DNA from: a virus
Direction: 5' to 3' (one strand)
Virus genome (UHGV): UHGV-0120184
Length of the DNA: 14,793 nucleotides
The notes under the pieces were generated by a model that worked only from the letters and a program-made list of their open reading frames with translations, ran no database searches and was not told where the DNA came from. Below are positions 1-14,600 of this stretch, piece after piece. The translations under genes were made by a program, and so were the position numbers. Positions within the stretch are counted from its first letter, which is position 1; every line of letters begins with the position of its first letter.

Positions 1-404
1 CCATCAGCCCGGAAAAAGCCAGAGAACTCAAAACCGCCGGGATCAACGCCTGGCGGAACAGAATGGAATCAGCCAGTTATATTTTCAGCTTTAATGGCCG
101 TAACTGGGATTATGGAAAGGAAACACAGGATCGCCTTGGCCCATCAGTTATCGCAGCAAAAGAAGGCAATCTCCCGGAGAAGTTTTTCTGGACAGACGCA
201 GACAACAACGACGTCCCCATGACTGCGGAAGAACTGATTGCGCTGAGTGAAGCCGCGCAACAGGCAATGTTCGCGAAGGGAATGGAAATTCATGTGCGCC
301 AGCGCAACATGAAAAAAGAGATTGCAGAACTTCAGGATGCGGAGGCCATTCAGCGTTACGTTGTGGGCTGGCCCACAACGGAAGAACCCGCCACCGAAAG
401 ATGA
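1..404 (+). CDS. Phage tail fiber assembly/chaperone-like protein, C-terminal part (5' end lies outside the window)
   Basis: Open frame runs from position 3 (…ISPEKARELKTAGINAWRNRMESASYIF…) to TGA at 402-404. The C-terminal pattern (…DVPMTAEELIALSEAAQQAMFAKGMEIHVRQRNMKKEIAELQDAEAIQRYVVGWP) resembles tail fiber assembly (Tfa/gpG, DUF4376-type) C-termini as I recall them. It sits beside a P2-like tail cluster. Confidence 0.55.
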   Translation, partial: ISPEKARELKTAGINAWRNRMESASYIFSFNGRNWDYGKETQDRLGPSVIAAKEGNLPEKFFWTDADNNDVPMTAEELIALSEAAQQAMFAKGMEIHVRQRNMKKEIAELQDAEAIQRYVVGWPTTEEPATER

Positions 405-412
405 ACAGCAAA

Positions 413-434
413 AACGCCCTGACACCAGGGCGTT
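413..434. terminator. Bidirectional rho-independent terminator between the convergent Tfa-like gene and gene U
   Basis: Perfect 9-bp stem AACGCCCTG / CAGGGCGTT with loop ACAC, flanked by an A-run (408-412) and ATTATTT (435-441), so a U-run follows the stem on either strand. It lies between the stop codons at 402-404 (+) and 440-442 (-). Confidence 0.6.
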
Positions 435-439
435 ATTAT

Positions 440-913
440 TTAAACCGGAATGGACAGATTATTCAGGGCACCTTTGACGTTATTCGCAAGATCACCAAGC
501 GACGAGGACTGAAGACGTTCACGCAGATCTTCATCCACACGCTCAAAAGTGACAGTAAACTCAATCTTTCTTGCCCGACCATAGCGATCAAGTTCAGAGC
601 GGGTGGTGTTAAGCCCGGTAATGACATACATCCCGTAAATCTGCCCTACCCCATCAATCAGCGGCCATGGTCGCCCGACGTAAGCCTGGCTGGTCAGTGC
701 GGTCAGGGAGACTTCACCGCCCGTAATTTCCGGGTAGAGCAAACCCGAAAGCGTGATGGTATCGTCACCCGCGCCGATATACTGCCAGCTGGCTGAGCGG
801 TTGATTCGCTCGTTCTTTACATGCCTCCAGTTACGGGACTGTTGTATTTGTTGGTATGGCAGTGTGCTTAACTGAAAAACAAACATGCCGTAAATCATCA
901 TCATAACCATCAC
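440..913 (-). CDS. U: P2 gpU-like tail protein
   Basis: 157-aa ORF (…FVFQLSTLPYQQIQQSRNWRH…DTITLSGLLYPEITGG…) matching the P2 gpU family from memory. It lies immediately downstream of the tape measure stop (916-918). Several in-frame ATGs at the 5' end (MMVMMMIYGM) leave the exact start ambiguous. Confidence 0.85.
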   Translation of the reverse strand: MMVMMMIYGMFVFQLSTLPYQQIQQSRNWRHVKNERINRSASWQYIGAGDDTITLSGLLYPEITGGEVSLTALTSQAYVGRPWPLIDGVGQIYGMYVITGLNTTRSELDRYGRARKIEFTVTFERVDEDLRERLQSSSLGDLANNVKGALNNLSIPV

Positions 914-915
914 TC

Positions 916-3747
916 CTAATCACGATCGCGGAAACTGTTCATACCGCCGGATTGTCTGCGAATTTCTTCCCGTACCGCCTCCCCCACCATTCTGGCAAGG
1001 TCGCGAGGGTTCTGCGTAACCACGTTGTGAAGGTGAACATGAATATCACCACCGTACACAGGCGGCGGTTCAGGAGAGCGCGAAGGCCCCCGGGGTGTCG
1101 GGGACACCGGATCCCACCGCTTAACCTCCACAGGACGGGAAGAATCCGGGGAAACCGCCGGAGACACAGGCGAAAACGCTGGCATAAGCGGAAGCCCGGG
1201 TGCAACAGTCGGTTCATTCCACTGCCCGCGAACAGCCAGCGCACGGGGGAGATTTTTAAACACGATATCGCCAGGACCGATACGCTTGCGGGCTTCCTGA
1301 AGCATACCCGACGTATTACCCTCGATACCTTTGAGCCTGCGAAGAACGCCACTGGTGCCGTCGTTTATGACAGAAGGCTTGCCACCATTATTACCTTTAT
1401 CATTGCCATCAACTGGCTTAGCGGGCGAGATAATGGCATTAACATCCCCCTGAAGCAGGGAGAGCTTGCCCTGAAGAAGCGAAGCCCGCTGTGCATCCTC
1501 CAGTTTCCGGCGCGCCCTTTCAGCTTCATCAGGCAGCACGCCAAGCTTTTCCAGTACCCAGGCAAGTCCATCCATCAGCGCCTTCAGCGGCGTAAGCGCA
1601 AGCGATATCGCCCCACTAAGTACACGACCGAAGCTTTCTCCCGCAGACGTACACCGTTCAAGAGATTCGTTGCTGGCCTGAACAGGCGTGAGTAACCGGG
1701 TAAACCAGTCAAACACCGTGGACACCGCACCCGACACCAGATCAAACAACGGCGCAAACTGAGCAATACTTTCACGAACAGGCGCAAGGCCAGCCCACAG
1801 CGACCGGAATGTGCCGAGCATGAACGCCTTAACCTGTTCCCAGTGACGCCATATGAGCAGCGCCCCACCGGCAAGAGCAGCAATCACGAGACCAACAGGA
1901 CTGAGAAGACCGGAAAGCACCCCGCCCAGCACAGAAACCGCACCGGAGACCATCCCCCACAGTGCCGGAAGGCCGGACAGGCGAAGAGCAAGACCACCAA
2001 CACCGTTTGTAAGCGAGGATAGCCCGCCACCAAGAAGCGCAGAGCCAAGCTGAAGTTTTGCAAAAATCCCCGTCAGTAACCCACCTCCGACAGACAACGC
2101 ACCAATGGCCGTTGTGGCCGCAAGCACGCCACCCACGGTAAGGGTCAGCGTGCGTACAAGCTGCGGGTTTTCCTGAACCCACGACCTGAAGCGTTCACCC
2201 ACAGAAGCAACAGCCTGTACAAGCTCGCGGATATCATCAGTAACCAGCGACACAACATCACTGCGAATACCGGAGAAAATGCCGGACAGACGATCGGTGT
2301 CGCCGCCGAGGTTGTCACGCAGAACATCCCCCATTCGCCGGGCGGTTCCCTGAACCAGCCCCATACGGTCAGATACCGTTGCAAGCGACCGGAGAAAATC
2401 CGGGATCTGGTCAACAGCCAGATCTTCAATGGGTGTGCCGAACAGCGCTATCGCCGCATTGGCCCGTTCTGCAGGATCCTGAATCTGTAACAGACCTGAC
2501 GCGGTGCGACGCATCGCTTCACGCGCGGCCGCGCCGCCACTGGCGATCGCTGACGACATTCTTTCAGCGTTAAGGCCAATCAGCTCATAGGCTTCAACGC
2601 TGGATTTGGACATATCCGAGCCGCGAATACTGAATTCTTTGACAGCATCGCCGGTTTTATCCAGGGCGAATTTCCCCTGCTGCGCCATGCTGACAAGCAG
2701 CGTCATGGTTTCAGAGCCGGATAGCCCCATATTGCGGAAATGCGTGGAATACTCATGCAGAATTTCAGGAAGTTCGCCGCGCATTTCGGCAGACATTTTC
2801 TGCATCCCTGCCGCCATCAGGTCGACGGCCTCACCTGCATTTGCGGCAAGCCCGTTTTTCAGCATAATGCCAGCAGCCTGAACCTGTTCAGCCACATTAC
2901 CGCCGGTGACCTGAGCAAGATCGATTGCCTGCCGTGTCACCCTTTCCAGTTCTTCAGTCCCTACGGTACCCAGTGCGCCAAGCGTGCTTTGCGCCGCAGC
3001 TGCTGCTTCCGAAATCATCGCGATATCCGTGGCCGCACCTGACGCACGGATGCTCTGAATCATACGGCTGTAGCGCTGGCCGTCTTCTGCGCTGCCGCCA
3101 CTCTGTGCCGCAATGAGCGCACCCTGCCGTTGCTCTTCAACAACAGGTGCAACCGCGCGACCGGCAGCATACAGACCGGCACTGCCAGCCGCCATGGCAA
3201 CAGCACCGCGCTGACTGAGCTTACCGGCAATATCCTGAACACGGTCATAGCGTTGCTGCGCCTGCGTGACGCGTGCAAGCTGGCCCCGCTGGCGTTCGAG
3301 CTGATCGTTGTATTCCTGCGTCCGCCTGATTGCCCTCTCGACCGCACGGTTACTTCCGTCCGCCCGTATACCGTGAGATTCCAGTTCGCGACTGGCTTCG
3401 CTAAGTCGGGATTTGTGGAGGGAATAAACCGTATTAAGGCGATCAATCTTCACAGTCAGCGAGCGTATAGCTTCCTGCTGTTTTTCCGTTAGTGTTGTGC
3501 CTGTACGCTGGGCCTCCTGGAGGCGCTGAAGTCGCGCACGCGCCTCGTTCAGACTGTTTTCAGTCGAGGTCACCTGCTGGCGGGCACGGGAAAACGCATC
3601 ACTGCTTCGCTGGAGTGACTTAAGAGCGTTCTGCGTGGAGGAAAGAGATTCGGAAAGCGCGCCGGTCATTTCCCGGGCGCGCCTGACGGGTTGAGTGAGA
3701 CGGTCGACCGCAGTAAGGGCTACACGTATCTGGAGATTATTACTCAT
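916..3747 (-). CDS. T: Phage tail tape measure protein (P2 gpT-like)
   Basis: Long ORF with an N-terminal coiled-coil-like region (repeated Q/R/E/L heptad-like stretches), a Gly/Ala/Leu-rich hydrophobic middle segment and a Pro-rich C-terminus, all typical of tape measure proteins. ATG at 3747-3745 (MSNNLQIRV…) is preferred because the E' frame stop (3742-3740) overlaps it; the ORF track's GTG at 3801 is an alternative start. Confidence 0.85.
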   Translation of the reverse strand: MSNNLQIRVALTAVDRLTQPVRRAREMTGALSESLSSTQNALKSLQRSSDAFSRARQQVTSTENSLNEARARLQRLQEAQRTGTTLTEKQQEAIRSLTVKIDRLNTVYSLHKSRLSEASRELESHGIRADGSNRAVERAIRRTQEYNDQLERQRGQLARVTQAQQRYDRVQDIAGKLSQRGAVAMAAGSAGLYAAGRAVAPVVEEQRQGALIAAQSGGSAEDGQRYSRMIQSIRASGAATDIAMISEAAAAAQSTLGALGTVGTEELERVTRQAIDLAQVTGGNVAEQVQAAGIMLKNGLAANAGEAVDLMAAGMQKMSAEMRGELPEILHEYSTHFRNMGLSGSETMTLLVSMAQQGKFALDKTGDAVKEFSIRGSDMSKSSVEAYELIGLNAERMSSAIASGGAAAREAMRRTASGLLQIQDPAERANAAIALFGTPIEDLAVDQIPDFLRSLATVSDRMGLVQGTARRMGDVLRDNLGGDTDRLSGIFSGIRSDVVSLVTDDIRELVQAVASVGERFRSWVQENPQLVRTLTLTVGGVLAATTAIGALSVGGGLLTGIFAKLQLGSALLGGGLSSLTNGVGGLALRLSGLPALWGMVSGAVSVLGGVLSGLLSPVGLVIAALAGGALLIWRHWEQVKAFMLGTFRSLWAGLAPVRESIAQFAPLFDLVSGAVSTVFDWFTRLLTPVQASNESLERCTSAGESFGRVLSGAISLALTPLKALMDGLAWVLEKLGVLPDEAERARRKLEDAQRASLLQGKLSLLQGDVNAIISPAKPVDGNDKGNNGGKPSVINDGTSGVLRRLKGIEGNTSGMLQEARKRIGPGDIVFKNLPRALAVRGQWNEPTVAPGLPLMPAFSPVSPAVSPDSSRPVEVKRWDPVSPTPRGPSRSPEPPPVYGGDIHVHLHNVVTQNPRDLARMVGEAVREEIRRQSGGMNSFRDRD

Positions 3748-4275
3748 CGTTATGATTCCCGGTTCTGACGGCCGCCCGTTCTCGCCAGGCAACCAGTTCA
3801 CCGGGAGTCATCACAAAGATTTCAGAGGGCGACCAGTGAAATACAACGGCTATATCAGCGACAATATCTTCAACGTAATCAAAAGCAAGAAGCGTTACGC
3901 GCCGCCCGCCTCCTGCGCCTTCTTCGCTGACGAGGGAAGCAAAAAACCGACTGCCACCTCGTACAGTTTAAAGAAGTCTTCCGGGCACATTGACATAAGT
4001 GCCGCGCGGCTGAGGTGAGGTTCAGTTACGCGTTCCAGAAAAATGGCGGCAGCATCAACATCGGTGTTGAACAGGTCCGTCATGCGGATCCCTCGAAGCG
4101 AGCCCACCTGACGCGCAAGCGCCCCAATCTTCACGCTGGAAACCGTCTTATTACCGCAGACAACAGGAACCCTGAGATTAACCGTGTCATTTGCGATCGC
4201 CTCTGCGTTTTCCGTGTCGCCATTCGTCACAGCATCTGTGTCATTCGTCACGATATTTTCTTCAGTCTGATCCAT
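3740..4275 (-). CDS. E': gpE+E' fusion product made by programmed -1 ribosomal frameshift
   Basis: Minus-strand heptamer T TTT TTG (complement of 3946-3940) lies in the E zero frame (GGT TTT TTG). The -1 frame stays open from there for about 65 codons (…VTLLAFDYVEDIVADIAVVFHWSPSEIFVMTPGELVAWRERAAVRTGNHNDE) and ends at TAA 3742-3740, overlapping the tape measure ATG at 3747. This is the same arrangement as P2 E/E' and lambda G/GT. Confidence 0.6.
3895..4275 (-). CDS. E: Tail assembly chaperone gpE-like protein
   Basis: ORF between tail tube and tape measure whose C-terminal part (…GIRMTDLFNTDVDAAAIFLERVTEPHLSRAALMSMCPEDFFKLYEVAVGFLLPSS…) is gpE-like. It carries a T6G slippery site near its 3' end. 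The acidic N-terminal extension makes the true start uncertain. Confidence 0.75.
   Translation of the reverse strand: MDQTEENIVTNDTDAVTNGDTENAEAIANDTVNLRVPVVCGNKTVSSVKIGALARQVGSLRGIRMTDLFNTDVDAAAIFLERVTEPHLSRAALMSMCPEDFFKLYEVAVGFLLPSSAKKAQEAGGA
3940..3946 (-). promoter_or_regulatory. Slippery heptamer TTTTTTG for the -1 frameshift (E to E')
   Basis: X XXY YYZ motif in the zero frame of E, 15 codons before the E stop, with the -1 frame open downstream. Confidence 0.6.
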
Positions 4276-4326
4276 TATTTTTCTCCCGGGGCAACAGGAC
4301 GCCGCCCCTGTTATCAGATTTAACTA

Positions 4327-4839
4327 TCAGCCAAGCCCCAGCATGGAGCGGGTGCGGTCAGGAAGAACATCCTTACCATCAATGCGCCAGATGAAGTTCA
4401 GCACGTCGATTTCAATAACATCGCTGTTATCAACGCTGAGCTTGTACCAGGTGCATTTCATCGCATAGGTATGTTCGGTATCTTCACCCTGTTTGGCCTC
4501 GCCCTTGTCGATTTCGACAATGCGACCACGGGCTTCAATATCGACGTACTCAATCCCTTCTTCGGAATAGTATTCACCCGAGAAGCGAACACGCACGGCA
4601 TCAATACCGGCGGCGTATTTGGCAAAGATGTGACGATCGACGCCACCAACCGCAAAGGAGAGATCCAGTGCACCATCATCAAGACCGAGATCCACCGACG
4701 CAGAGCCTGGCATCCCCGCCCCGCGATACGACTCTGTTTTACGGGTCAGTTTTGGCGGGGTAAAAGACGCCACCTTGCCCAGCTTGTTGTCACCGTCCAC
4801 AAAGACGGTAAACACACGAAGTTTTTTTGGTACGGCCAT
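4327..4839 (-). CDS. FII: Tail tube protein (P2 gpFII-like)
   Basis: 170 aa with strong resemblance to P2 FII (…LGKVASFTPPKLTRKTESYRGAGMPGSASVDLGLDDGALDLSFAVGG…). GGAGG-type Shine-Dalgarno upstream. Start overlaps the sheath stop (TAATG at 4837-4841). Confidence 0.9.
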   Translation of the reverse strand: MAVPKKLRVFTVFVDGDNKLGKVASFTPPKLTRKTESYRGAGMPGSASVDLGLDDGALDLSFAVGGVDRHIFAKYAAGIDAVRVRFSGEYYSEEGIEYVDIEARGRIVEIDKGEAKQGEDTEHTYAMKCTWYKLSVDNSDVIEIDVLNFIWRIDGKDVLPDRTRSMLGLG

Positions 4840-6044
4840 TAGCTACCTCCAAGAGATGCAAAAGCAGAGCCAAAGAACTCGTCGGTAAACGTCTGATAGA
4901 GTTCCATACACTCCATCGGCGGAACAGGCGTGTATTTGTAGCGAATACGCACAATGCCCTGACGAAGACTGGTTGTGCCGTTGTCGATGATATCGAACCA
5001 GCACTCAGCCCCGATGAGTTTTCCGGCTGTCACCAGTGCATCCAGCTTTGCCTTGATAGCGCTCACGGCATCCTTAGCATTGGCAGGCGTAAGCGGTGAA
5101 TCCACTATCTGAAGTTGCGCCTCCGCAATGGTGTCAGCCAGTTGCTGCGCCGTACGTGTGTACACCTCAAAGATGTACTCCGCAGTTTCCGGCGTACGGT
5201 TACCCCAGAAACGGAAGGAGCCGTCGCCCTGGTGAATAAGAGTGGTCACCTCGCTATTGTTCAGCGTGTTGGCATCGCTGTTTTCATCCTGAAGTGACCA
5301 GGAAACAGACGCTGACACCCCAAGAACATTTTTCACAGGCATGTTAGAAAGGGAGCGATGCCAGCCCTGTTCATGGTCGAGTCGGGCACGAAGACCGCAC
5401 GCATACGCCGCAGCCGGGAAGGTTTCGTTTTTACCGGACACCGGGTTGAACGCAATGAAATCAGGCCACAGAAGCATGATTTCGCGACCGGAAATCTTTT
5501 TACGGAACGCAATAGCATCGGACGGTTTTGTGCAGCCAGGGCAGCCGGAATACGCAAATGCGCGCATTTTTCCGGCAACAGTCACCAGTGCAGCCGTGAC
5601 AGCATCCGATTCAAGGCCCGGAGCGGCAAGAATGCGGGGTCGGTAACCAATACCTTCCATCTGTTCGGCAACCAGAAGCGCCTGCATACCGCTGTAGCTT
5701 CCGTCTTCTTCCGTGGTACCAATGACCAGTTGATCCTGTGTTTTATTCTCAGCCCCCTCTTTTGCCGCCTCCACGCGAACGACAATCACCCGTGTACTGA
5801 CCTGGTCAGATATCGCTTTAAGGGCCTTATAAAGCGTGCCCGCTTTCCCGGCCTTCCCCAGAACAGAAGATACACGGGTAATCAGCACAGGCTTGTTAAG
5901 GGGGAACTGCCCGGTATCCGCATCATCTGCAACGGCAACAATACCAATGACGCTGGAATCAACGTCATTAATGGCCGTCACAAGGTCGGTATTCTCCGTG
6001 ACGCGCACACCGTGAAATCGTTTTTCAGCCATACGATTCACCAT
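4839..6044 (-). CDS. FI: Contractile tail sheath protein (P2 gpFI-like)
   Basis: 401 aa with motifs matching P2 FI from memory (HGVRV…FPLNKPVLIT…GTLYKALKAISDQ…WPDFIAFNPVSG…FRFWGNRT…YKYTPVPPMEC). The start could instead be the in-frame ATG at 6032. Confidence 0.9.
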   Translation of the reverse strand: MVNRMAEKRFHGVRVTENTDLVTAINDVDSSVIGIVAVADDADTGQFPLNKPVLITRVSSVLGKAGKAGTLYKALKAISDQVSTRVIVVRVEAAKEGAENKTQDQLVIGTTEEDGSYSGMQALLVAEQMEGIGYRPRILAAPGLESDAVTAALVTVAGKMRAFAYSGCPGCTKPSDAIAFRKKISGREIMLLWPDFIAFNPVSGKNETFPAAAYACGLRARLDHEQGWHRSLSNMPVKNVLGVSASVSWSLQDENSDANTLNNSEVTTLIHQGDGSFRFWGNRTPETAEYIFEVYTRTAQQLADTIAEAQLQIVDSPLTPANAKDAVSAIKAKLDALVTAGKLIGAECWFDIIDNGTTSLRQGIVRIRYKYTPVPPMECMELYQTFTDEFFGSAFASLGGS

Positions 6045-6107
6045 CAGTTGTGTTTATGCTCGCCTGAATAATCCACCATTGGCGCACAGCCCTCACCTGA
6101 TGCGGGC

Positions 6108-6125
6108 TGTGGGGATTTTTTTACA
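6108..6125. promoter_or_regulatory. TGT-N12-ACA dyad, candidate Ogr-dependent late-promoter activator site in the divergent FI/D region
   Basis: Exact TGT(6108-6110)-N12-ACA(6123-6125) in the 141-bp region between the FI start (6044, minus) and the D start (6186, plus). The dyad centre is about 55 bp from plausible transcription starts on either side, matching the known architecture of P2/P4 late promoters. Confidence 0.4.
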
Positions 6126-6185
6126 ACAGAGCCGGACAGAAACGACAAGGTACGCGTGGGATGATACGCACACGGGAGGGATATC

Positions 6186-7331
6186 ATGAGCATCACTGAA
6201 TCAGTAACACATCACATCAACAGCGCACTGGATGCAGCGGAAGATACCGTTAGGGTGCCAGACTTCACTATCACACTGGAAGGGAAAGATGCCAGCCTGA
6301 AGAACATCACGCAGCGCATCATGAGCCTGACCATGACAGACAACAGGGGTTTTGAGGCTGACAGGGTGACACTGGAAATCGACGACGCCGACGGCGGGGT
6401 GGTACTTCCGGAGCGCGGAACACGATTATCGCTGGCGATGGGATGGAAAGGTGAAAGCCTCACTCGCAAGGGGGCGTTTGTGGTGGACGAAGTGAGCCAC
6501 GAAGGTCCGCCGGATAAGCTGACCATATCCGCGAACAGTGCGGATTTTCGCGAAGAGTTTAACGTGAAACGCGAAGTCTCCTGGCATGACGTGACCGTTG
6601 AGCGTGTGGTATCTGCCATCGCGCACCGTTACGGACTGAAAGCACAAATCAGCGAAATGCTGATGAATATCGAAATCGACCATGCAGACCAGACAGAGGA
6701 AAGCGACATCTCGTTCCTCACGCGTATGGCTGACATGCTGGGTGCAATAACCACCGTAAAAAACGGGTGCCTGCTGTTCATTCTGCCGGGTGGCGGTGTG
6801 ACAGCCAGCGGGCGCGCCCTCCCCTCATTCGCCCTGACCCGCTCGGATGGCGACAGTCATCGCTTTCGCATTGCTGACAGAAAAGCCTATACCGGAGTGA
6901 AAGCTTACTGGCTGGATTTAAAGTTCGGCCAGAAGAAGGCCGTGAACGTGAAAAAGCGAAACGCGAAAACCACACAGAAGCCGGAGAAAAGCAGTTCACG
7001 GGAGGGTGGATACATGGAAGGCGCAGAAGGCAATGTGTATGTGCTGAGAAAAACCTACCCGAACGAAGAAGCCGCGCGTCGCGCAGCTGCCGCACGCTGG
7101 CAGCAACTTCAGCGGGGTGCAGCAGAATTCAGCATCACGCTGGCGCGCGGACGCGCCGACCTGTATCCGGAGATGCACGGCACGGTATCCGGGTTCAAGA
7201 GCGACATTGACAATCAGGACTGGATTATTTCGCGCATTGAGCACGTCATCGACGACAGCGGCTTCACCACCAGACTGGAGCTGGAAGCAAAAATCGCAGA
7301 CTGGATAGCAGAGCGCGCCACGACTGGCTAG
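6186..7331 (+). CDS. D: Phage tail protein D (P2 gpD-like late control / tail formation protein)
   Basis: 381 aa with gpD-family hallmarks (PDFTITLEGKDASLKNITQRIMSLTMTDNRGFEADRVTLEIDDADGGVVLPERG…FLTRMAD…ISRIEHVIDDSGFTTRLELE). GGGAGG Shine-Dalgarno 5 nt upstream of the ATG. Confidence 0.9.
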   Translation: MSITESVTHHINSALDAAEDTVRVPDFTITLEGKDASLKNITQRIMSLTMTDNRGFEADRVTLEIDDADGGVVLPERGTRLSLAMGWKGESLTRKGAFVVDEVSHEGPPDKLTISANSADFREEFNVKREVSWHDVTVERVVSAIAHRYGLKAQISEMLMNIEIDHADQTEESDISFLTRMADMLGAITTVKNGCLLFILPGGGVTASGRALPSFALTRSDGDSHRFRIADRKAYTGVKAYWLDLKFGQKKAVNVKKRNAKTTQKPEKSSSREGGYMEGAEGNVYVLRKTYPNEEAARRAAAARWQQLQRGAAEFSITLARGRADLYPEMHGTVSGFKSDIDNQDWIISRIEHVIDDSGFTTRLELEAKIADWIAERATTG

Positions 7332-7372
7332 AATGAGCGCGAGCCCACCCCGTTTCAGCCAGGGGGACCATC

Positions 7373-7675
7373 ATGCATCCTTGCCCATACTGCGGAGCAA
7401 GTACCCGCACCAGAACAAGCCGCGACGCCAACGATACAGGAACAATCAGGGAGAAATATTACCAGTGCAACAACATTGAATGCAGCGCCACCTTTGTGAC
7501 GCACGAGTTTGTCGTGAGAACCGTATGCCGTCCGCAACCCACCGAAGAACGGGGAGTCGTCCCCGCAGACGCTTTCAAATCATGCCACCGGGGAAGGGAT
7601 CAACTCAGCCTCCCCCTGGGCGATTGCGCCTCCCAGTCAAAAACTGTACATTACGCGCGGGTGCCTTTCGGCTGA
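7373..7675 (+). CDS. ogr: Ogr/Delta-family zinc-finger late transcription activator
   Basis: N-terminus MHPCPYCG…TSR…REKYYQCNNIECSATFVTHE has the C-x2-C…C-x4-C zinc-finger layout and close resemblance to P2 Ogr. It lies immediately downstream of D, as in P2. The C-terminal tail is longer than P2 Ogr (100 vs about 72 aa). Confidence 0.8.
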   Translation: MHPCPYCGASTRTRTSRDANDTGTIREKYYQCNNIECSATFVTHEFVVRTVCRPQPTEERGVVPADAFKSCHRGRDQLSLPLGDCASQSKTVHYARVPFG

Positions 7676-7805
7676 CGGCTGGAAGGATTACCTGAAGGCC
7701 GGATGTGGAAAGGCCCCGGAAAACATCTCTGTTTAGCCGAGGCCCTAATCTACATATCTTTAGCAAGTAGAAGGTTAGCGCCTCTTTGAAAAAGGAGCAA
7801 GCGCT

Positions 7806-7946
7806 ATGCCGCAAAAAACGATCATCGTGAGCATTTTATGCTTAACCATGTTGTTGACCGTCTGGATGATACATCGTTCACCATGTGAATTCAGACTTAA
7901 CATCATGTGGTCAGAATTTGCGGCGTTCTTGCAGTGTAAACCGTAA
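7806..7946 (+). CDS. hok: Hok/Gef/PndA-family type I toxin (small membrane peptide)
   Basis: 46-codon ORF not in the supplied track: MPQKTIIVSILCLTMLLTVWMIHRSPCEFRLNIMWSEFAAFLQCKP. It has one transmembrane helix followed by the conserved Hok-family C-E-x-R and E-x-AAF motifs and is very close to PndA as I recall it. AGGAG Shine-Dalgarno at 7793-7797, 8 nt before the ATG. Confidence 0.75.
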   Translation: MPQKTIIVSILCLTMLLTVWMIHRSPCEFRLNIMWSEFAAFLQCKP

Positions 7947-7954
7947 GAAACCGC

Positions 7955-7976
7955 AGCGGGGGTGAAAGCCCCCGCT
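7955..7976 (+). other. Stable 8-bp GC-rich hairpin in the hok 3' region
   Basis: AGCGGGGG-TGAAAG-CCCCCGCT, 9 nt after the hok stop. hok-family mRNAs carry extensive 3' structure (the fold-back inhibition element); the specific role here is inferred. Confidence 0.4.
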
Positions 7977-8040
7977 ATCCGGTTGCCGAAGGTTCGGTCG
8001 AAAGCCGCACCCGTGCATGCAAGTGACAAAGAAAAAACAA

Positions 8041-8075
8041 AGCCCGCAGCGTAAAAACTGCGGGCTTTTTTATTC
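8041..8075 (+). terminator. Rho-independent terminator closing the hok locus
   Basis: Stem AGCCCGCAG / CTGCGGGCT with an 8-nt loop, followed by TTTTTTATT; preceded by an A-run, so it could also work on the minus strand. Confidence 0.6.
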
Positions 8076-8112
8076 ACATACCGAAGGTGTGGTAACTGCC
8101 TGGGTTCAGACC

Positions 8113-8136
8113 AAAAAAAGCCCCATAAAATGGGGC
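8113..8136 (-). terminator. Candidate minus-strand rho-independent terminator
   Basis: Plus strand reads A7-GCCCCA-TAAAA-TGGGGC; on the minus strand this is a GC stem followed by a T7 run. It lies about 300 nt downstream of the minus-strand membrane-protein operon. Confidence 0.4.
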
Positions 8137-8281
8137 TGAAGATTCTGTAAGGAATTTCACAGCAATGAGATTCTAGTCTCTTCCAATGATATATGAGTCT
8201 TCAGCCTGAATCAATGGGGCATGACTGTGAATCCACCGACGATCAAAACTTGCACAATGCCTGAAGTTGAGTTAGAAAAGT

Positions 8282-8342
8282 ACCGGGCGCGATATCCGGT
8301 TTATTTTTTGTTGCTGTGTTTTGCCTCGTGCCGGATATCGCG
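8282..8342. repeat. 12-bp perfect inverted repeat CGCGATATCCGG separated by a 31-nt T-rich spacer, with a nested terminator-like hairpin
   Basis: CGCGATATCCGG at 8288-8299 and its reverse complement CCGGATATCGCG at 8331-8342. The nested hairpin ACCGG-N9-CCGGT (8282-8300) is followed by TTATTTTTTG. Confidence 0.5.
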
Positions 8343-8432
8343 TCCACCGTTTTTCTGATGATTCTTATGAAATCGTACTTTATTGATTTACTGCCATCCT
8401 GGTTTGTCTTTTTATGTTCATTATTGCGACAG

Positions 8433-8828
8433 TCATTTCCTGTTTCTGGTGATGTTTTGATAAAAGTGAAAGAATAAAACGATCATTGCAGAAGGTATTG
8501 CTAAAACCATACATATCATTATATAAACAAGATGAAAATGATATATACCATAAGACCAGAAAAAAGGTTTTTTCCAGAATGATATGGATGTGTATTTTAG
8601 TGTAATTGTTTTTGTCAGGTATATTGAACAAGGAAGAGCCAGGCCACTGAGTATCAGAAATAAGTCAACTTTTATCGATGCTTCTGTTGGTGTGTCATAT
8701 ATAAGATGCAATATGGATATTATAATGGGGCACATTCCCCACAGGATATTTTTGAAATAGAATTTCCGGTTCATATGTTTATGCTCTTTGGTTTTATCCC
8801 GGGAATTGGCGCTTTGTTTTTTATTCAT
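8433..8828 (-). CDS. Hypothetical small membrane protein (3-4 TM helices); second gene of the operon, translationally coupled
   Basis: 131-aa ORF whose ATG (8828-8826) lies 5 nt upstream of the upstream gene's stop (8823-8821), giving an 8-nt overlap. Hydrophobic segments ILWGMCPIIISILHLIY, VDLFLILSGLALPCSIYL and YGIYHFHLVYIMICMVLAIPSAMIVLFFHF. Same AT-rich composition. Confidence 0.55.
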   Translation of the reverse strand: MNKKQSANSRDKTKEHKHMNRKFYFKNILWGMCPIIISILHLIYDTPTEASIKVDLFLILSGLALPCSIYLTKTITLKYTSISFWKKPFFWSYGIYHFHLVYIMICMVLAIPSAMIVLFFHFYQNITRNRK

Positions 8829-9492
8829 GAACGTTTTCGTTGTTTAATAACCATGGGGTATTATGATTATCCTTTATTTTTGATATGTAATTGTCAATAG
8901 TGGATTTCGTTTCATTATTGTGGTTATAGTAATCATGAAGAGTGCAAAACACATCATCTTTTATTGTGGCGATTAATGGGGCTTGTGTGAGGGTAAAATA
9001 TAAAGAACGATTACTTAGTGTCCTGAAATAAATTTTTTCGCCAATGACCAGATCGGTGTTCATTATATTGTAGCCTATTTCAAATATATTGTTTGATGGC
9101 ATGTGTAATACATATGTGGGGTATTTGTTGTGTTTTTTCATTAAATAATAAATAAAATCAGATACAGGCATCTGTTTTAGTTTTTTTTGCATCTTCCTTA
9201 TGTGTTGTGACATTAATATCATTTTCGAGAGAATGCATAAGAGACTAAACAAGAGATTAAATACTATGTTCAGTACTATCAGAGTAACAAACAGGCCAAT
9301 GCTCCTTAGCGCTGAAAATATATTGTCATTGTAAATATACTGGAATGTATATCCGGCTGATAAAAATGCCAATATATATAACACTATGTCTGTTTTATTT
9401 CGCTTTTTTATTTTGTAGGTTATTGCTGATTTTAAGAATAAGATGGCAATAAGAGCAGTGATAACCCAGAAAAATATAACGGAAACTTCCAT
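8821..9492 (-). CDS. Hypothetical multi-pass membrane protein (about 3 N-terminal TM helices plus a ~130-aa hydrophilic C-terminal domain); first gene of an AT-rich two-gene operon
   Basis: 223-aa ORF in a region of very low GC compared with the flanks. Hydrophobic stretches VSVIFFWVITALIAILFL, IVLYILAFLSAGYTF and IGLFVTLIVLNIVFNLLFSLLCIL. AAAGG Shine-Dalgarno-like motif upstream of the ATG at 9492. I recognise no family. Confidence 0.6.
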   Translation of the reverse strand: MEVSVIFFWVITALIAILFLKSAITYKIKKRNKTDIVLYILAFLSAGYTFQYIYNDNIFSALRSIGLFVTLIVLNIVFNLLFSLLCILSKMILMSQHIRKMQKKLKQMPVSDFIYYLMKKHNKYPTYVLHMPSNNIFEIGYNIMNTDLVIGEKIYFRTLSNRSLYFTLTQAPLIATIKDDVFCTLHDYYNHNNETKSTIDNYISKIKDNHNTPWLLNNENVHE

Positions 9493-9690
9493 AATTATAC
9501 CTTTATCGTGTTTTCAGGGAGGTAATTTATCATTGTGCTGATATGCATGTAAATACATGCATTATCTGTTTCTTATATTCTTTTTATGAAGTTACTGATT
9601 AATTTATATTAAAACAACACATTCATAATGAAATCAACATGTTCATATGGTTGACGGCAGATTTCTCTTTTTGTTAACCTGCATCTGCAT

Positions 9691-9939
9691 TAACTGTCGC
9701 TTCGGCGACCACCAATGTTCCATAGTGGCCTGTGAGGAACGCCTTCGGGTGGCCCATGTCGCTCCGGCGACCACCAATGCTCCATATGACCTGTGAGGAG
9801 CGCCTTCGGGTGGTCAGTTTTACACCTCCGTAGCCTGAAAGGAGCTGTGAGTACTGAAGGGAAACATCCCTGATGTATGGGCAAATCTGCACACCTTTGA
9901 GAGCAGATGTCACTACGGTTTTACGTGATGATGAAGGCA
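9691..9939 (+). repeat. Direct repeat copy A (~249 bp) bounding the recombinase module; begins with two tandem ~61-nt units
   Basis: Near-identical to 12484-12733 with only a handful of mismatches. Internal tandem units at about 9695-9756 and 9757-9817, each starting with the hairpin GTCGC-T(T/C)CG-GCGAC. Confidence 0.85.
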
Positions 9940-10682
9940 TTCCGGATTCCGTTCCGGTACTTTTATTTTTTCTCAGCAGACAGGCATAAAAACGCCTTTA
10001 AAATCTGCGTCTTAAGATATTTTCTGACTTTCCGCATGAGCTTCTTATGACTGTGCGCACGGCATAAGACCATTTGAAATTTGGTCGCTTGCGTGTGCAT
10101 GTGGAGTTTGAAGCTGTGCGGCGTCACTTGCGTGCGACCGAAGGGAACACCAAGTGACGCCGCGGCCATCTGCCCTGAAGGCAGCATCACGTAAGGTCTG
10201 GCAGAAAATCGTCGCTCGTGACAAGCGTCCTGATGCTCGTTTTGTCGCTCTGACAACGTCTTTCGGTGACGTATCCACGCCTTTCCGGCGCGTCCGTTTT
10301 CACACGGACGGCCACGCCGGAATGTCTTCTTAAACTTCGTAATACATGAGAGGTAAGTGTATTAACTGACTGAAATAAAGGAATAAAAATGAAAAATCGT
10401 TCTGATGTCGGGAGGCGTCATCGTAAGGTGACGGGGAGTATTCCTCAACAATCGCCCTGGTGCACAGGTAGCGAACTCCTGTAAGAACTCAACATGTGCA
10501 AGCTCTGCTACATCGACATCAAACGAGCCAGGAAGGCGAACAACCGCGTTACAGAGCCGTCCGTGATGACGAAAAACTAACAATATCAACGAACTTTTCT
10601 GTTTACCGGAAGGGCTGCGTATGCAGTTTTACTTTGTGAACGGAAGGGGGCTGCATCTGATTTTTACAGGGAGAATGACTTT

Positions 10683-11600
10683 ATGGCCCGGAAATCGTCA
10701 CGTTCTAAAGTTGAACTGTTTCGCAAGTCTTTCATCTCACTTGCCCGTGAGTGTGGTGGCAGTTACGCAACAACAGCTGACAGAATGAGAATTGCAAAGT
10801 ACTTCCTGAATTATTTACGTGAAAATGGAATTAAACTTCGCCAGACGAGCAGTATTAAAACCAGACATATTTCTGGTTACCTTCTCAGCAGGAAAGCAGC
10901 GGGTATTTCTCACCGGACTATTCAGAATGAACGGGCGGTTATGCGTGCCATTTTAGAAAAAGATGGACGACTTAAAATCGCAGATCCTTCTAACCCATTA
11001 TTGAGTAATGAAGCGCTCGGCCTAAAGGATACATGCCGTGATGGAAAGAAAATAGCATTGTCACCGGATGAATTCTGGAAAGCATTTGCTAAAGTGGAAA
11101 AAAAGAATCCTGGTGTGGCAGCTGCAATGCAGCTTTCTTATGTTCTGGGTTTAAGAACAAAAGAAGCCGTTCAGTCATGTAAGTCTGTTCAGTCATGGCT
11201 ACGGGAACTGAATTCAGGGTGCGATTCTCTTTCGGTCGTTTTTGGTACGAAAGGTGGAAGACCAAGAAATACCACAATTATTGACAGAGATGCGGTAAGA
11301 CATGCTTTGCTTTATGCTCAAAAAATAATGGATGAACACGACGGAAAACTTATTGACCGTCCAAATATAAAACAGGCTATCAATGTTTTTCGTTATCATG
11401 CCCGTAAAGCGGGATTGTCAGGAGTGAAATCTCCGCACAGTATGCGTTATCATTTTTCTCAGGAAGCCAGAAAATTTTATCGAAAAAATGGATATGGAGA
11501 GTCGGAAATCTACGCTCGTGTTTCTATGGATCTTGGCCATGGTGACGGAAGAGGTCGTTATGTAAAACAGGTTTATTTTAACGGTTCTGATGAAAGTTGA
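10683..11600 (+). CDS. Short tyrosine-recombinase-like protein (integrase family)
   Basis: 305 aa. Catalytic-domain-like order and spacing of residues: R in LGLRTKEA, K in TKGGRPR, H-x-x-R in HSMRYH, H in LGHGDG and a C-terminal Y in RYVKQVY. N-terminal region resembles a core-binding (SAM-like) domain. Assignment is by motif reading only. Confidence 0.7.
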   Translation: MARKSSRSKVELFRKSFISLARECGGSYATTADRMRIAKYFLNYLRENGIKLRQTSSIKTRHISGYLLSRKAAGISHRTIQNERAVMRAILEKDGRLKIADPSNPLLSNEALGLKDTCRDGKKIALSPDEFWKAFAKVEKKNPGVAAAMQLSYVLGLRTKEAVQSCKSVQSWLRELNSGCDSLSVVFGTKGGRPRNTTIIDRDAVRHALLYAQKIMDEHDGKLIDRPNIKQAINVFRYHARKAGLSGVKSPHSMRYHFSQEARKFYRKNGYGESEIYARVSMDLGHGDGRGRYVKQVYFNGSDES

Positions 11601-11603
11601 TAT

Positions 11604-12341
11604 TTAAAATGAATCTGGAGGATATGTGTTTTTGTTAATTTCGGTTATGATGATTTCTGATGCGCGATTACACATATCTTCATCAAAATACCCAATATGA
11701 CATTCATGAATGTGACAATTCAGTTTTCTGGATAGCCATATATTTGCCTCGTTACGGGATATGTTGGCTCTTTGCTGATAATTGTCAAAAAGTTTACGTA
11801 CTTTTGTTCTGAGTATTCTCAGGTTTTCTTTAGCCGGAGTACCTAATGGTCTTCCTGAGTTTTTATGGCATCCAACCCATGCATTGCATGGGGGACAAAT
11901 CCAGTAATATTTGTTTTCTGTCGCGGCTGAAATGGAAAATGGCATGAGAGCCCCTTTTATAAGATTCGTCTTATTTCCACAGTATGGGCAGATAACAATT
12001 GGTCGGACATCTGCAATATTCAGTGATGTATAAGTCAGTCGTTCATTTTTAACGATGTTTCTCTTTCCGCAATGGGTGAGAACATGCTTTATTGTATCTA
12101 ATTCTTCTCGTAGTATTTTGGAACTGACGCCAGTGCGATAACGTTGTTGAAAATAGCATTCAATATGACGTAGTTTTATGCTATTTGCTGAGCTTATCTG
12201 TATATTGGCATCTTTAAGAAATGAAGCAAGTCTTCTGGCTCTTCCCGTATATACCAACATATCTTCTGGCGTCGGGGCGCATGCTTTGGCTATTCTGAGT
12301 AGTTCATCTTTTAATTTTTTGTATTTCGATTTCATTTTCAC
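11604..12341 (-). CDS. Integrase-N-terminal-like domain fused to a Cys-rich zinc-ribbon-like domain; no recombinase catalytic motifs
   Basis: 245 aa. The N-terminal ~100 aa are paralogous in layout to the neighbouring recombinase N-terminus (…SSANSIKLRHIECYFQQRYRTGVSSKILREELDTIKHVL vs …TSSIKTRHISGYLLSRKAAGISHRTIQNERAVMRAIL). The C-terminus has CPYCG…CPPC…CH…CHIHECHIG…C Cys/His clusters. It is convergent with the recombinase gene, with stops 3 bp apart. Start is GTG 12341 or ATG 12335. Confidence 0.65.
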   Translation of the reverse strand: MKMKSKYKKLKDELLRIAKACAPTPEDMLVYTGRARRLASFLKDANIQISSANSIKLRHIECYFQQRYRTGVSSKILREELDTIKHVLTHCGKRNIVKNERLTYTSLNIADVRPIVICPYCGNKTNLIKGALMPFSISAATENKYYWICPPCNAWVGCHKNSGRPLGTPAKENLRILRTKVRKLFDNYQQRANISRNEANIWLSRKLNCHIHECHIGYFDEDMCNRASEIIITEINKNTYPPDSF

Positions 12342-12483
12342 ATCTCTCTTACAGGTTCATAAAGAGTGTTACTGAATTAAAAAATATCAAATTGAGCTGG
12401 CCTTGTCAGTCAGCTGTAGGTTATTACCATAGCCACGACAACAACTTGAAGTTTTATGTTGTTTATGATTATATTTTAGACGC

Positions 12484-12733
12484 TAACTTGTCGCTCCGGC
12501 GACCACCAATGTTCCATAGTGGCCTGTGAGGAACGCCTTCGGGTGGCCCATGTCGCTCCGGCGACCACCAATGCTCCATATGACCTGTGAGGAGCGCCTT
12601 CGGGTGGTCAGTTTTACACCTCCGTAGCCTGAAAGGAGCTGTGAGTACTGAAGGGAAACATCCCTGATGTACGGGCAAATCTGCACACCTTTGAGAGCAG
12701 ATGTCACCACGGTTTTACGTGATGATGAAGGCA
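12484..12733 (+). repeat. Direct repeat copy B (~250 bp)
   Basis: Second copy of the sequence at 9691-9939 in the same orientation. Differences: one extra T near the start, T to C in the first hairpin loop, and two single-base changes near 12668 and 12707. Sequences diverge completely after ..GATGAAGGCA. Confidence 0.85.
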
Positions 12734-12866
12734 CTTTGTATACAATGTGACTATGAGTTGTCTCTGGTCTTCTTAAGCGCATCGTGCTGACGCATTGATG
12801 TGTTCACCTGACGGATTTTCCAGTCCGTCAGGGCGGAACGTCCGTCTTTTTCATTCGGAGGTTCCG

Positions 12867-13268
12867 ATGTTTATACCACTTTTGTTACGTGCAGATATGC
12901 GCATAACGCCTTTCTTTCATCTTCTCAGACAATGTCTGTTTAATCAGAAGCGTTGTGTTCACCCACAACAGCCCTGGTCCGCTCCACAACTGAGGCATCT
13001 GTACTGCACTCCGTGGTTTATTAACGCCACCGGCAATCTGTCAGTCAGAGCCTGCATTGTTTCCACCAACGGTGCATTGCGACACTGCTTTGAGTTCCGT
13101 GAAGGCTCTCACAGCCGTGAATATCGTTACTGGTTTGAGGCACTTCCGCTGTCTGTCGTGCGGTTTAATGTCTTTACCGGTCGAATATCTGCTCGCCGCA
13201 CGCTTTCTGCTGCCTCCCGTATGGCCGTGCAGCTTACTTCTTTTCGCTATCGCTTCGGTCTTCGCTGA
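12867..13268 (+). CDS. Hypothetical basic Cys/Arg/Phe-rich protein (uncertain gene)
   Basis: ATG at 12867 preceded by GGAGG (12857-12861) at 5-nt spacing; 133 codons. The composition is unusual and no family is recognised, so it may be non-coding. Confidence 0.3.
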   Translation: MFIPLLLRADMRITPFFHLLRQCLFNQKRCVHPQQPWSAPQLRHLYCTPWFINATGNLSVRACIVSTNGALRHCFEFREGSHSREYRYWFEALPLSVVRFNVFTGRISARRTLSAASRMAVQLTSFRYRFGLR

Positions 13269-13380
13269 AGCCTGTTGAACGGTCGTCATGACCGTTGAAA
13301 GGTTTATCACACAACGCCCGGATCTGTCTGACCGTACCACGCGTGCGCGATGACAAATCTGAGTTTTCCTTAACCCGTCC

Positions 13381-13417
13381 GGGACCGCTCCCGTTCGGGG
13401 ACGGTCCCGCTGTTTTT
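13381..13417 (+). terminator. GC-rich hairpin plus T-run immediately upstream of the next gene's RBS (terminator or attenuator-like)
   Basis: GGGACCG (13381-13387) pairs with CGGTCCC (13402-13408), with internal TCCC/GGGA pairing, followed by TTTTT (13413-13417) and then AGGAG (13421-13425) and ATG 13433. Confidence 0.45.
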
Positions 13418-13432
13418 ATCAGGAGATTGTTT

Positions 13433-13813
13433 ATGGGACTCGATATTTTTTTCCTTGGGCGTGATCGTGTTACCGACGCGGTAGTATCGGTACCGGAAAC
13501 GCGGGAAGTGGGTTACTTTCGCAAGGTTAACCCACTGATTGCCTGGTTTGAGACGCATTGTGGACCGGTTGAAAATGCCGTGGAGCGTCCGGTTTCCAGA
13601 ACGGAACTGGAGGCACTACTGAGCGATCTTGAATGCCTTACGCCGGAGAACTGCCGGGAATTCTTCCCCACAACAGAAGGATTCTTTTTTGGTTCTCAGG
13701 AGTATGACCAGTATTACTGGAAGGATGTTGAGATCGTGAAATCGTGGGTCAGAAGCACGCTTGATTCGTTTGATTTTGAACGAAAAATACTGTTGCTCTG
13801 GGCATGGTGGTAA
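13433..13813 (+). CDS. Hypothetical protein
   Basis: Start at ATG 13433 chosen (AGGAG 8 nt upstream) over the track's 13295, which would read through the hairpin and T-run. 126 aa ending …SWVRSTLDSFDFERKILLLWAWW. No family recognised. Confidence 0.55.
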   Translation: MGLDIFFLGRDRVTDAVVSVPETREVGYFRKVNPLIAWFETHCGPVENAVERPVSRTELEALLSDLECLTPENCREFFPTTEGFFFGSQEYDQYYWKDVEIVKSWVRSTLDSFDFERKILLLWAWW

Positions 13814-13913
13814 TTATTTTTCTGTCCTTGTTTTTAACCTTATTACCCTGTCGGGAACATGTGTCCCGTAGGGCAGGTGTGTTCCCGTAATTTTTTGTAT
13901 CTGAGGTGAACAC

Positions 13914-14393
13914 ATGAATAGTCTGTTAATACTCCTTTACGTTGTTGTATGCCGTGCCTGCACCATTCTTCGGGTAATCGCACCAGTGTCGTCTGTCCGT
14001 GCGTGGTGTGAGTATCAACTGGAAGGTATGACGATACTTCGTGATGCGTACAGCTCGCTGGCTAAGGCGGCTGGAATGCAGAATGATGCATTTGAATATC
14101 TTGAAAGTATTGCTCGTCATCTGGGCTACGAAAGCGGTGGTGACCAACTGAAATCAGGACTTTTCCGGCCGTTTCTGTGGCATATACGTGCGAAAGGCCA
14201 CAGGCTGGGAGCTGTCATGGAAATGGCGGTATGGCAGGCATGGAAGAATGGCTGTAACGATGTCTGCAATCCATGGGAGGATGTCTACAATCCATGGGAC
14301 CGTGGATGGAACGATGGCTGGACTGAATGTCTGGATCAACGTATAGCCGGTCTCCTGAAGGCGGTCTGTATTGACTTTTCCGACGCCGACTGA
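13914..14393 (+). CDS. Hypothetical protein with hydrophobic N-terminus and Trp/Asn/Asp-rich repeats (NPWED…NPWDRGWNDGW)
   Basis: 159-aa ORF with GAGGTG Shine-Dalgarno-like motif 6 nt upstream of the ATG. No family recognised. Confidence 0.5.
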   Translation: MNSLLILLYVVVCRACTILRVIAPVSSVRAWCEYQLEGMTILRDAYSSLAKAAGMQNDAFEYLESIARHLGYESGGDQLKSGLFRPFLWHIRAKGHRLGAVMEMAVWQAWKNGCNDVCNPWEDVYNPWDRGWNDGWTECLDQRIAGLLKAVCIDFSDAD

Positions 14394-14427
14394 ACGGTTT
14401 TTCTTTTACTTACTGTACCGTGTACCT

Positions 14428-14508: not shown

Positions 14509-14600
14509 GTCCGGCCAGTCTGATTTTCGTTATTAATTTAACCGTATGGTGCATGTTCACCGTACGGGGAGCATGCATCTTTTTTATGGAGCGTGCTCTT

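Follow-up and report, generated by a model that had tools for sequence, protein, structure and literature searches.

The DNA examined here, a 14,793-nucleotide stretch of the virus genome UHGV-0120184 (hereafter the window), raises a question of gene order: why do the P2-like tail genes FI to U lie on one strand and D on the other, and which promoters could serve two groups of genes arranged in this way? Homologues of FI, FII, E, T, U, D, and Ogr are all present, making up the contractile-tail module of a P2-like (Peduoviridae) phage (table 1). Six of the seven tail-module proteins exceed the curated Pfam cut-offs. The exception is gpE, which matches PF10109 weakly (20.5 bits, under the curated cut-off of 25) and is 29–40% identical to E of relatives by tblastn; the module was also compared by tblastn with P2, P88, and SEN5. 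On the minus strand, a −1 slippery site, TTTTTTG, at 3946–3940 brings a T-run just ahead of the E stop codon, and the E' frame reads open to the TAA at 3742–3740, overlapping the start of T. These features predict a programmed −1 frameshift, a device known for E/E' in P2 (Christie et al. 2002, as cited in PMC5694545). The canonical one-strand order FI-FII-E-T-U-D is replaced by an FI–U block on the minus strand, from 6032 to 440, and a D gene on the plus strand. Open reading frames, Pfam matches, and the RefSeq gene calls for a locus 99.7% identical to it all bear out the inversion of this block relative to P2 that had been proposed in a sequence-only reading of the window, and D is, as that reading held, physically uncoupled from the FI–U operon. 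The Tfa-like gene, within which the window begins, is complete in prophage L001 (CDS 19802–20404) and is the final gene of an operon of the V-W-J-I-H-G type. At the other end, in the right third of the window, a hok repeat connects the prophage to an integrating conjugative element (ICE); this prophage–ICE junction is absent from all complete E. coli genomes.

Table 1. Features of the prophage part of the window; promoter elements are predictions.
Feature	Position	Strand	Evidence or remark
Tfa-like (DUF4376) tail-fibre-assembly gene, 3' part	1..404	+	Pfam PF14301, E = 3.5e-16
Bidirectional intrinsic-terminator hairpin, Tfa/U convergence	413..434	.	9-bp stem
gpU tail protein	440..904	-	PF06995, E = 6e-41; RefSeq CDS in L001
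gpT tape measure protein	916..3747	-	PF10145; RefSeq CDS
gpE	3895-4275	-	Predicted frameshift product, E+E' region 3740..4275
gpFII tail tube	4327..4839	-	PF04985, E = 6e-49
gpFI tail sheath	4839..6032	-	PF04984, PF22671, PF17482; 73-74% identity to P88/Xuanwuvirus sheath
Predicted -10 of P_F, GATTAT	6068..6073	-	44-49 nt from dyad centre
Ogr-type dyad TGT-N12-ACA	6108..6125	.	Centre 6116.5; 84.5 nt from FI ATG
Predicted extended -10 of P_D, TG-G-GATGAT	6157..6165	+	Hexamer 44-49 nt from dyad centre
gpD baseplate hub / late control D family	6186..7331	+	PF05954
TAGAAT, candidate -10 of ogr-proximal promoter	7329..7334	+	In 41-nt D-ogr gap
ogr/Delta-like zinc-finger late activator, 100 aa	7373..7675	+	PF04606, E = 1e-15

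The inverted order is found in all 57 species-representative prophages with a D at least 58% identical and the canonical order in all 23 loci with a D at most 53% identical, these 80 loci having been taken as the top-scoring hits of a D profile and not as a random sample of Peduoviridae. The inverted prophages span more than 25 genera of Enterobacterales. According to neighbor-joining trees of both D and FI, a single branch splits the inverted from the canonical order, and the window groups with the 56–57 inverted loci. Among sequenced phages, sheath and D are on opposite strands in P88, P884B11, PhiSM, PhiR44_2, Chuche, and 500465-2, as well as in phiT5282H, KSP20, Kp48xx, ST16-OXA48phi5.4, 3LV2017, and SEN4/5, with 150–190 bp between the two genes; P88, SEN4/5, PhiSM, 3LV2017, phiT5282H, and KSP20 are cultured phages. 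The window shows the same P88/SEN4-type arrangement: Tfa converges with U, FI diverges from D over a spacer in the 110–180 bp range, and ogr follows D. P88 and PhiSM form plaques (PMC5285337, PMC6456863) and are therefore functional. The FI–U inversion is thus standard in a large and old group of P2-like phages that has already been sequenced and classified by ICTV. The sequence-only reading had implied that the order was remarkable while conceding that it would not be if standard in a well-known P2-like subgroup; the comparison with relatives places it in just such a group. The literature that we searched contains no explicit description of the FI–U inversion, and the SEN4/5 and P88 papers make no comment on gene order. 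As this order is normal for widespread enterobacterial P2-like prophages, tools and readers with P2 as their sole template will keep flagging it wrongly.

The same 8 kb are present in 16 complete E. coli genomes with at least 98.8% identity. A contig mis-assembled at 404–440 or 6044–6186 is next to inconceivable: both junctions are identical in these 16 independent genomes, in agreement with the earlier argument against an artefact, and they recur in all members of the clade, including phage genomes sequenced from virions. Our search for support for mis-assembly at either junction yielded none. Only slightly more credible, and still extremely improbable, is a recent, strain-specific inversion brought about by an invertase or by inverted repeats. 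Such an event would find a parallel in P88, where a DNA invertase and alternative tail-fibre cassettes adjoin the U end of the block, and in ENT90, where an invertase lies directly upstream of FI. Against it, the order does not vary among the 57 relatives, which span more than 25 genera, a single tree branch sets it apart, and this region of the window has no invertase gene. A search of the block boundaries for short inverted repeats that could have mediated the inversion had been proposed, but none pairs 404–440 with 6033–6185, as would be expected if the inversion were ancient.

At the U end, a strong hairpin between the converging genes agrees with the proposal of a terminator common to the Tfa-like gene and the FI–U block. 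Six of its nine base pairs are G-C and its predicted folding energy is −16.1 kcal/mol on each strand (z = −5.3 and −4.2 for the two strands). Directly after the stem come UUUUUG on the minus strand and UUAUUAUUU on the plus strand, and the minus-strand U-run is the better of the two. At the FI end, the divergent spacer exists as described previously but measures 153 bp, not 141, because FI starts at 6032, a position backed by a GGTGA Shine-Dalgarno sequence as well as by homology, and not at 6044.

This spacer holds the sole TGT-N12-ACA dyad of the prophage part of the window, as had been noted. By our arithmetic, one such motif per ~150 bp is about a 1-in-27 event (~150 of 4,096 positions). 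The motif occurs three times window-wide against 4.1 expected, and neither the window nor the whole prophage L001 nor a P2 genome is enriched in it. The reality of the dyad at 6108–6125 is therefore argued from its conserved position and not from motif counts. Its centre lies 78.5–88.5 nt from the FI ATG (median 82.5) in 57 unique relatives and 81.5 nt from it in the P2 genome (L005). Among the 57 unique spacers, 35 have a perfect dyad and 18 a dyad with a single mismatch; in 22, the half-site nearer to FI departs from TGT, reading TCT or a still poorer sequence. As a genome-wide marker of late promoters, TGT-N12-ACA was rejected, being too degenerate and too often imperfect for use alone.

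Late promoters that depend on Ogr/Delta in P2 and P4 combine a −10 element and a poor −35 with a dyad whose centre lies at about −55 relative to the transcription start; such a promoter needs Ogr and the alpha subunit of RNA polymerase to be transcribed. We analyzed 31 nonredundant FI–D spacers (mean identity 41%), scoring as −10-like any A2/T6 hexamer and anchoring them on the dyad centre, since the automatic choice of the D start codon was unreliable. On the FI side, 29 of the 31 spacers have such a hexamer beginning exactly 44 nt from the dyad centre; 26 have one at this distance on the D side, and 25 have both. At any other offset it occurs in at most six. Canonical relatives show conservation on the FI side of the dyad only. 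The −55 geometry fits both sides if the hexamers at 44–49 nt are −10 elements, with predicted transcription starts near 6061 on the minus strand for P_F and near 6172 on the plus strand for P_D, the latter followed by a Shine-Dalgarno sequence, GGGAGGG, at 6174–6180. The predicted late promoter has the upstream TGT-N12-ACA dyad characteristic of Ogr/Delta dependence, at a position conserved across the clade. A generic sigma-70 scan detected no promoter in the FI–D spacer, an expected outcome if these promoters are activator dependent. The literature searched yielded no transcript, footprint, or reporter data for any clade member. The earlier suggestion of a single dyad shared by divergent promoters gains genuine comparative support in silico from these clade-wide mirror hexamers, from which we infer the transcription starts, the binding of Ogr, and the Ogr dependence of P_D.

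The dyad might instead serve P_F alone, D and ogr being expressed from an Ogr-independent extended −10 sigma-70 promoter and the symmetry being a by-product of packing in ~150 bp; we regard this as possible but rather doubtful. The TG at +41/+42 on the D side is conserved (G at +42 in 25 of 31 spacers) and, in many relatives, is preceded by a TTG-like −35 with a 17-nt spacer. With these elements P_D could work without Ogr, in which case the constant distance might come from two promoters being packed tightly together and not from shared activation. Some Ogr-independent expression of ogr is, moreover, required to start the cascade. However, the 44-nt offset of the hexamers is invariant across spacers that are merely 41% identical, the interval from dyad to −10 on the D side contains no indels, D is a late protein with a structural role, and the window has GGACAG where relatives have the TTG −35. 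In addition, ogr apparently has a conserved TAnAAT-like hexamer of its own just upstream, at about equal distance ahead of its ATG across the inverted clade. This suggests that ogr most likely keeps a small promoter in the D–ogr gap, in which case an Ogr-independent P_D is not needed. We put slightly above even the chance that a single palindromic Ogr site at −55.5 co-activates P_F and P_D throughout the lineage. Its symmetry would have let the 5.6-kb inversion become fixed, since only a new mirror −10 would have been needed to rescue D, and late transcription would depend on two bidirectional nodes (P/O and FI/D) versus the four promoters of P2.

Taken as a whole, an account in which the window carries the right end of a P2-like prophage with one ancient FI–U inversion and one Ogr dyad positioned for both P_F and P_D appears likely. 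A single inversion in the distant past would have turned around the FI-FII-E/E'-T-U segment, which lies between the tail-fibre operon and D. The Ogr-dependent promoter P_F would have travelled with the segment, its dyad centre staying, as in P2, ~82 nt ahead of the FI ATG, and D would thereby have been placed back-to-back with P_F. D and the downstream ogr would form a transcription unit of their own, the extended −10 of P_D (TG-n-hexamer) being the putative exact mirror of the P_F −10 about the shared dyad. With −10 elements mirrored at 44–49 nt, one Ogr-bound palindrome near −55.5 would be positioned to activate both promoters. Termination of the FI–U operon would take place at the hairpin that also serves the Tfa gene converging on it. 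As a modest but clean gain, the comparison of relatives predicts that D forms a fifth late transcription unit, reading through into ogr, and that these phages have a second bidirectional node under Ogr control; the exact coordinates can be tested directly in P88 and PhiSM, both of which are cultivable. The lineage would also illustrate in a simple way how an operon inversion becomes tolerable when the activator site is symmetric.

The closest known systems are P88 and P884B11 (both Xuanwuvirus), PhiSM, 500465-2, Chuche, and PhiR44_2. Their gene order and strands are identical to those of the window: tail fibre/Tfa (+), U-T-E'-E-FII-FI (−), D-ogr (+), and then hok. They share the architecture of the FI–D spacer and are the best protein matches, with a sheath 73–74% and a D 72–73% identical (72–76% when prophages of the P88 type are included), whereas their tape measure is only ~39% identical. 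Megablast detected no DNA similarity to any phage over the structural genes of the window. Membership of Xuanwuvirus (ICTV) demands at least 70% whole-genome nucleotide identity to a member. The window contains only the right end of the prophage; with a protein identity of ~73% and no megablast match over the structural genes, this prophage probably falls outside the genus. P88 further differs beyond U: the stretch up to the fibre genes contains an invertase and tail-fibre cassettes in P88 but only a terminator in the window. The P88 dyad is TCT-N12-ACA, not TGT-N12-ACA, and is centred 88.5 nt from the FI ATG. The inverted block and divergent D are found again in a more distant group (sheath 53–68% identical) comprising SEN4/SEN5 (Senquatrovirus), 3LV2017, ST16-OXA48phi5.4, phiT5282H, and KSP20. 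The hosts are Escherichia for P88, 500465-2, Chuche, and PhiR44_2, Citrobacter for PhiSM, Klebsiella for 3LV2017 and ST16-OXA48phi5.4, Enterobacter for phiT5282H, Serratia for KSP20, and Salmonella for SEN4/5. The FETUD operon of P2 shares with the window its genes, the E/E' frameshift device, the geometry of P_F, and the location of ogr after D. In P2, however, the operon that FI leads closes with D, all on one strand, and the far side of the P_F dyad is not conserved. A likeness to the FI/D arrangement exists at P_P/P_O of P2-like phages, where back-to-back late operons flank a ~150-bp spacer around an Ogr-type palindrome; in Smp131, a single palindrome was assigned to both the P and O late promoters (PMC3931495). 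The P/O spacer of P88 similarly contains a single TCT-N12-ACAACAAAAG with −10-like hexamers ~44–50 nt on each side, as in the FI–D spacer, and both spacers have the CGCGCGCG element.

The layout of the window is concordant among the ORF listing, Pfam, and the RefSeq annotation of a 99.7% identical Escherichia coli locus (L001), and the tail genes FI to U lie on the strand opposite to D and ogr. Within E, a TTTTTTG slippery site is found at 3946–3940, and the −1 frame is open as far as 3740, overlapping the start of T. Homology and a GGTGA ribosome site favor 6032 as the start of FI over the upstream ATG at 6044 chosen in the sequence-only reading; the divergent FI–D spacer is therefore 153 bp long, not 141 bp. 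The dyad TGTGGGGATTTTTTTACA is indeed present at 6108–6125. Likewise, the terminator hairpin proposed at 413–434 is real, with a 9-bp stem and a stability of −16.1 kcal/mol on either strand, which none of 200 shuffles matched. As its U run is better on the minus strand, it best terminates the FI–U operon.

Genes of the prophage end and of the adjoining hok region
Gene	Position	Strand
Tfa-like DUF4376 gene, 3' part	ends at 404	+
gpU	440–904	−
Tape measure T	916–3747	−
E	3895–4275	−
FII	4327–4839	−
FI	4839–6032	−
D	6186–7331	+
ogr/Delta zinc finger	7373–7675	+
hok	7806–7946	+

The inverted block is neither an artifact nor a recent event: 16 complete E. coli genomes carry the entire 8 kb with identical junctions and 98.8–99.7% identity. 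The sheath and D were used as tblastn queries against 50,697 phage records. Many phages encode the two on opposite strands with 150–190 bp between them, among them Escherichia phage P88 and other Xuanwuvirus, Citrobacter PhiSM, Escherichia phages PhiR44_2, Chuche, and 500465-2, Enterobacter phiT5282H, Serratia KSP20, Salmonella SEN4/SEN5, and many Klebsiella phages, including 3LV2017 and ST16-OXA48phi5.4. For P88 and SEN5, genome annotation bears out the full order: fibre/Tfa, reversed U-T-E'-E-FII-FI, then D-ogr. Unlike the window, P2 and ENT90 have the canonical order. Since P88 and PhiSM form plaques (PMC5285337, PMC6456863), the inverted order is fully functional. The prophage proteins are ~73% identical to those of Xuanwuvirus, and no phage record gave a megablast-level DNA match over the structural genes.

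A profile search, restricted to one genome per species, yielded 80 loci whose order was typed by tblastn. All 57 loci with a D at least 58% identical to that of the window are inverted, and all 23 with a D at most 53% identical are canonical. Hosts of the inverted loci include Symbiopectobacterium, Edwardsiella, Citrobacter, Serratia, Erwinia, Pantoea, Mixta, Enterobacter, Klebsiella, Kosakonia, Salmonella, Brenneria, Pectobacterium, Providencia, Morganella, Xenorhabdus, Photorhabdus, Yersinia, and Hafnia, among others. In neighbor-joining trees of both D and FI, the inverted and canonical loci are split by a single branch. This distribution indicates that the inversion of FI–U is one old event inherited by a large lineage. 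The sequence-only reading, which considered the order unusual, is confirmed in its observation and partly supported in its interpretation: the order is standard in this P2-like lineage and, by that reading's own measure, unremarkable. We found no remark on it in the searchable literature. No inverted repeats linking the two block boundaries were found. In P88, the region that separates U from the fibre genes (8251–10955 of its locus, L002) holds a DNA invertase along with alternative tail-fibre/Tfa cassettes, and the canonical ENT90 carries an invertase just upstream of FI (2133–2522 of L004). It is conceivable that the block inversion originated in connection with invertases of this type.

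The window itself is composite. The prophage end, which adjoins serS in L001, extends to ~7710, and from about 7639–7645 on, the right part (7639–14738) matches internal sequence of an integrating conjugative element (ICE), with an integrase-domain protein, a zinc-finger protein, and ArdC; in the locus L086, TraG and ICE genes are located upstream. According to the SNP pattern, the switch occurs inside a 68-nt identical stretch (7645–7712) spanning the ogr stop, within an ogr-3'-end/hok/sok repeat of ~450 bp that is ~91% identical between the two elements. Among 5,426 complete E. coli genomes, there is none in which positions 6800–9600 are contiguous. The two elements are far apart in several genomes, and in G1/2 they are ~1.35 Mb apart and inverted. 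The junction could be a real hok-mediated rearrangement (inversion) or an assembly chimera. Within the ICE part, positions 8500–9500 have a very low G+C content (0.30–0.32 vs. ~0.55 in the prophage) and carry a 223-aa hypothetical ORF (8821–9492, minus strand).

The TGT-N12-ACA consensus and the four late operons of P2 have been described (cited in PMC3931495). We anchored all inverted spacers on their best dyad. Of 57 unique sequences, 35 carry a perfect dyad and 18 a dyad with one mismatch; the dyad center lies 78.5–88.5 nt (median 82.5) from the FI ATG. The corresponding distance in P2 is 81.5 nt; the FI–U promoter (P_F) therefore moved with the block. In an ungapped, dyad-centered alignment of 31 non-redundant spacers with a mean identity of 41%, conservation is limited to a few elements: on the FI side, GCGTGA 19–24 nt from the center and a hexamer at 44–49 nt (GATTAT, 6073..6068 in the window); the dyad with its ACAACAAAAA extension; and on the D side, successively, a CGCGCGCG tract, TG at +41/+42, and a hexamer at 44–49 nt (GATGAT, 6160–6165). 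Hexamers combining A at position 2 with T at position 6 begin exactly 44 nt from the center in 29/31 spacers on the FI side, 26/31 on the D side, and 25/31 on both, compared with at most 6/31 at any other offset from 25 to 65. Canonical relatives lack any conservation beyond the P_F dyad on the side away from FI. The alternating CGCGCGCG tract, directly upstream of the D-side TG/−10 and ~30–40 nt from the dyad center, is conserved across the clade and weakened to ACGCGTG (6150–6158) in the window; it could be a binding site or a spacer element keeping the promoter activator-dependent. L012 (NZ_JBQPOM010000071.1), a contig from a nominally Gram-positive genome labelled Vagococcus sp. WN89Y, carries a P88-type prophage whose FI–D spacer almost equals the P88 spacer (two differences in the stretch compared); the contig probably represents enterobacterial contamination or a mislabelled assembly.

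From these observations of gene order, phylogenetic distribution, and motif position and conservation, we propose that Ogr would bind the single palindrome and activate both P_F leftwards and the D promoter (P_D) rightwards. If the hexamers at 44–49 nt are −10 elements, the dyad is centered at about −55.5 for both promoters. The geometry of the activator site in the Ogr/Delta-dependent promoters of P2 and P4 matches such a position. Transcription would then start near 6061 (−) and 6172 (+), the rightward start lying immediately before the ribosome site of D, GGGAGGG (6174–6180). The main alternative, an extended −10 P_D that works independently of Ogr, would fit the conserved TG and the TTG-like element present 17 nt upstream in many relatives; we consider it rather unlikely, as the dyad spacing is invariant across very divergent spacers and ogr apparently has a separate promoter. 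Under shared activation by Ogr, P_D transcripts would run on through the 41-nt, terminator-free D–ogr gap into ogr, which would additionally have a start-up promoter of its own. Throughout the clade, a TAnAAT hexamer precedes the ogr ATG at a similar distance (TAGAAT, 7329–7334 in the window). In the D–ogr gaps of the window and of L002–L084, its variants TAGAAT, TAAAAT, CATAAT, and TATAAT lie ~35–40 nt before the ATG, followed in many relatives by a conserved GAGTTCAACTCCC; together, they likely represent an ogr-proximal promoter and leader. Similarly, ogr of P2 has a separate promoter. As a by-product, the mirror-symmetric pair of promoters is neat and testable, though no surprise.

In the full-length relative L001, the terminase–scaffold (P/O) spacer (7147–7231 of that locus, outside the window) is 66 bp long versus 154 bp in P88, its dyad TGT-N12-ACAACA (7214–7231) either borders directly on the first scaffold codons or overlaps them, and the scaffold gene is annotated with a TTG start. 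Given the short spacer and the dyad position, the O-side half of the control region (−10, ribosome site, ATG, and ~6 codons) seems to have been lost by deletion, and expression of the head and lysis genes may be defective in this prophage lineage. A palindrome shared by two divergent late promoters is not a new concept. In Smp131, PP' and PO' were assigned the same coordinates on opposite strands (PMC3931495). The P/O spacer of P88 contains a single TCT-N12-ACAACAAAAG with −10-like hexamers ~44–50 nt on either side and, as in the FI–D spacers, a CGCGCGCG tract upstream of the terminase-side −10 (L087, 14183–14192). Counting the FI/D pair, the inverted lineage therefore seems to possess two such single-palindrome divergent nodes.
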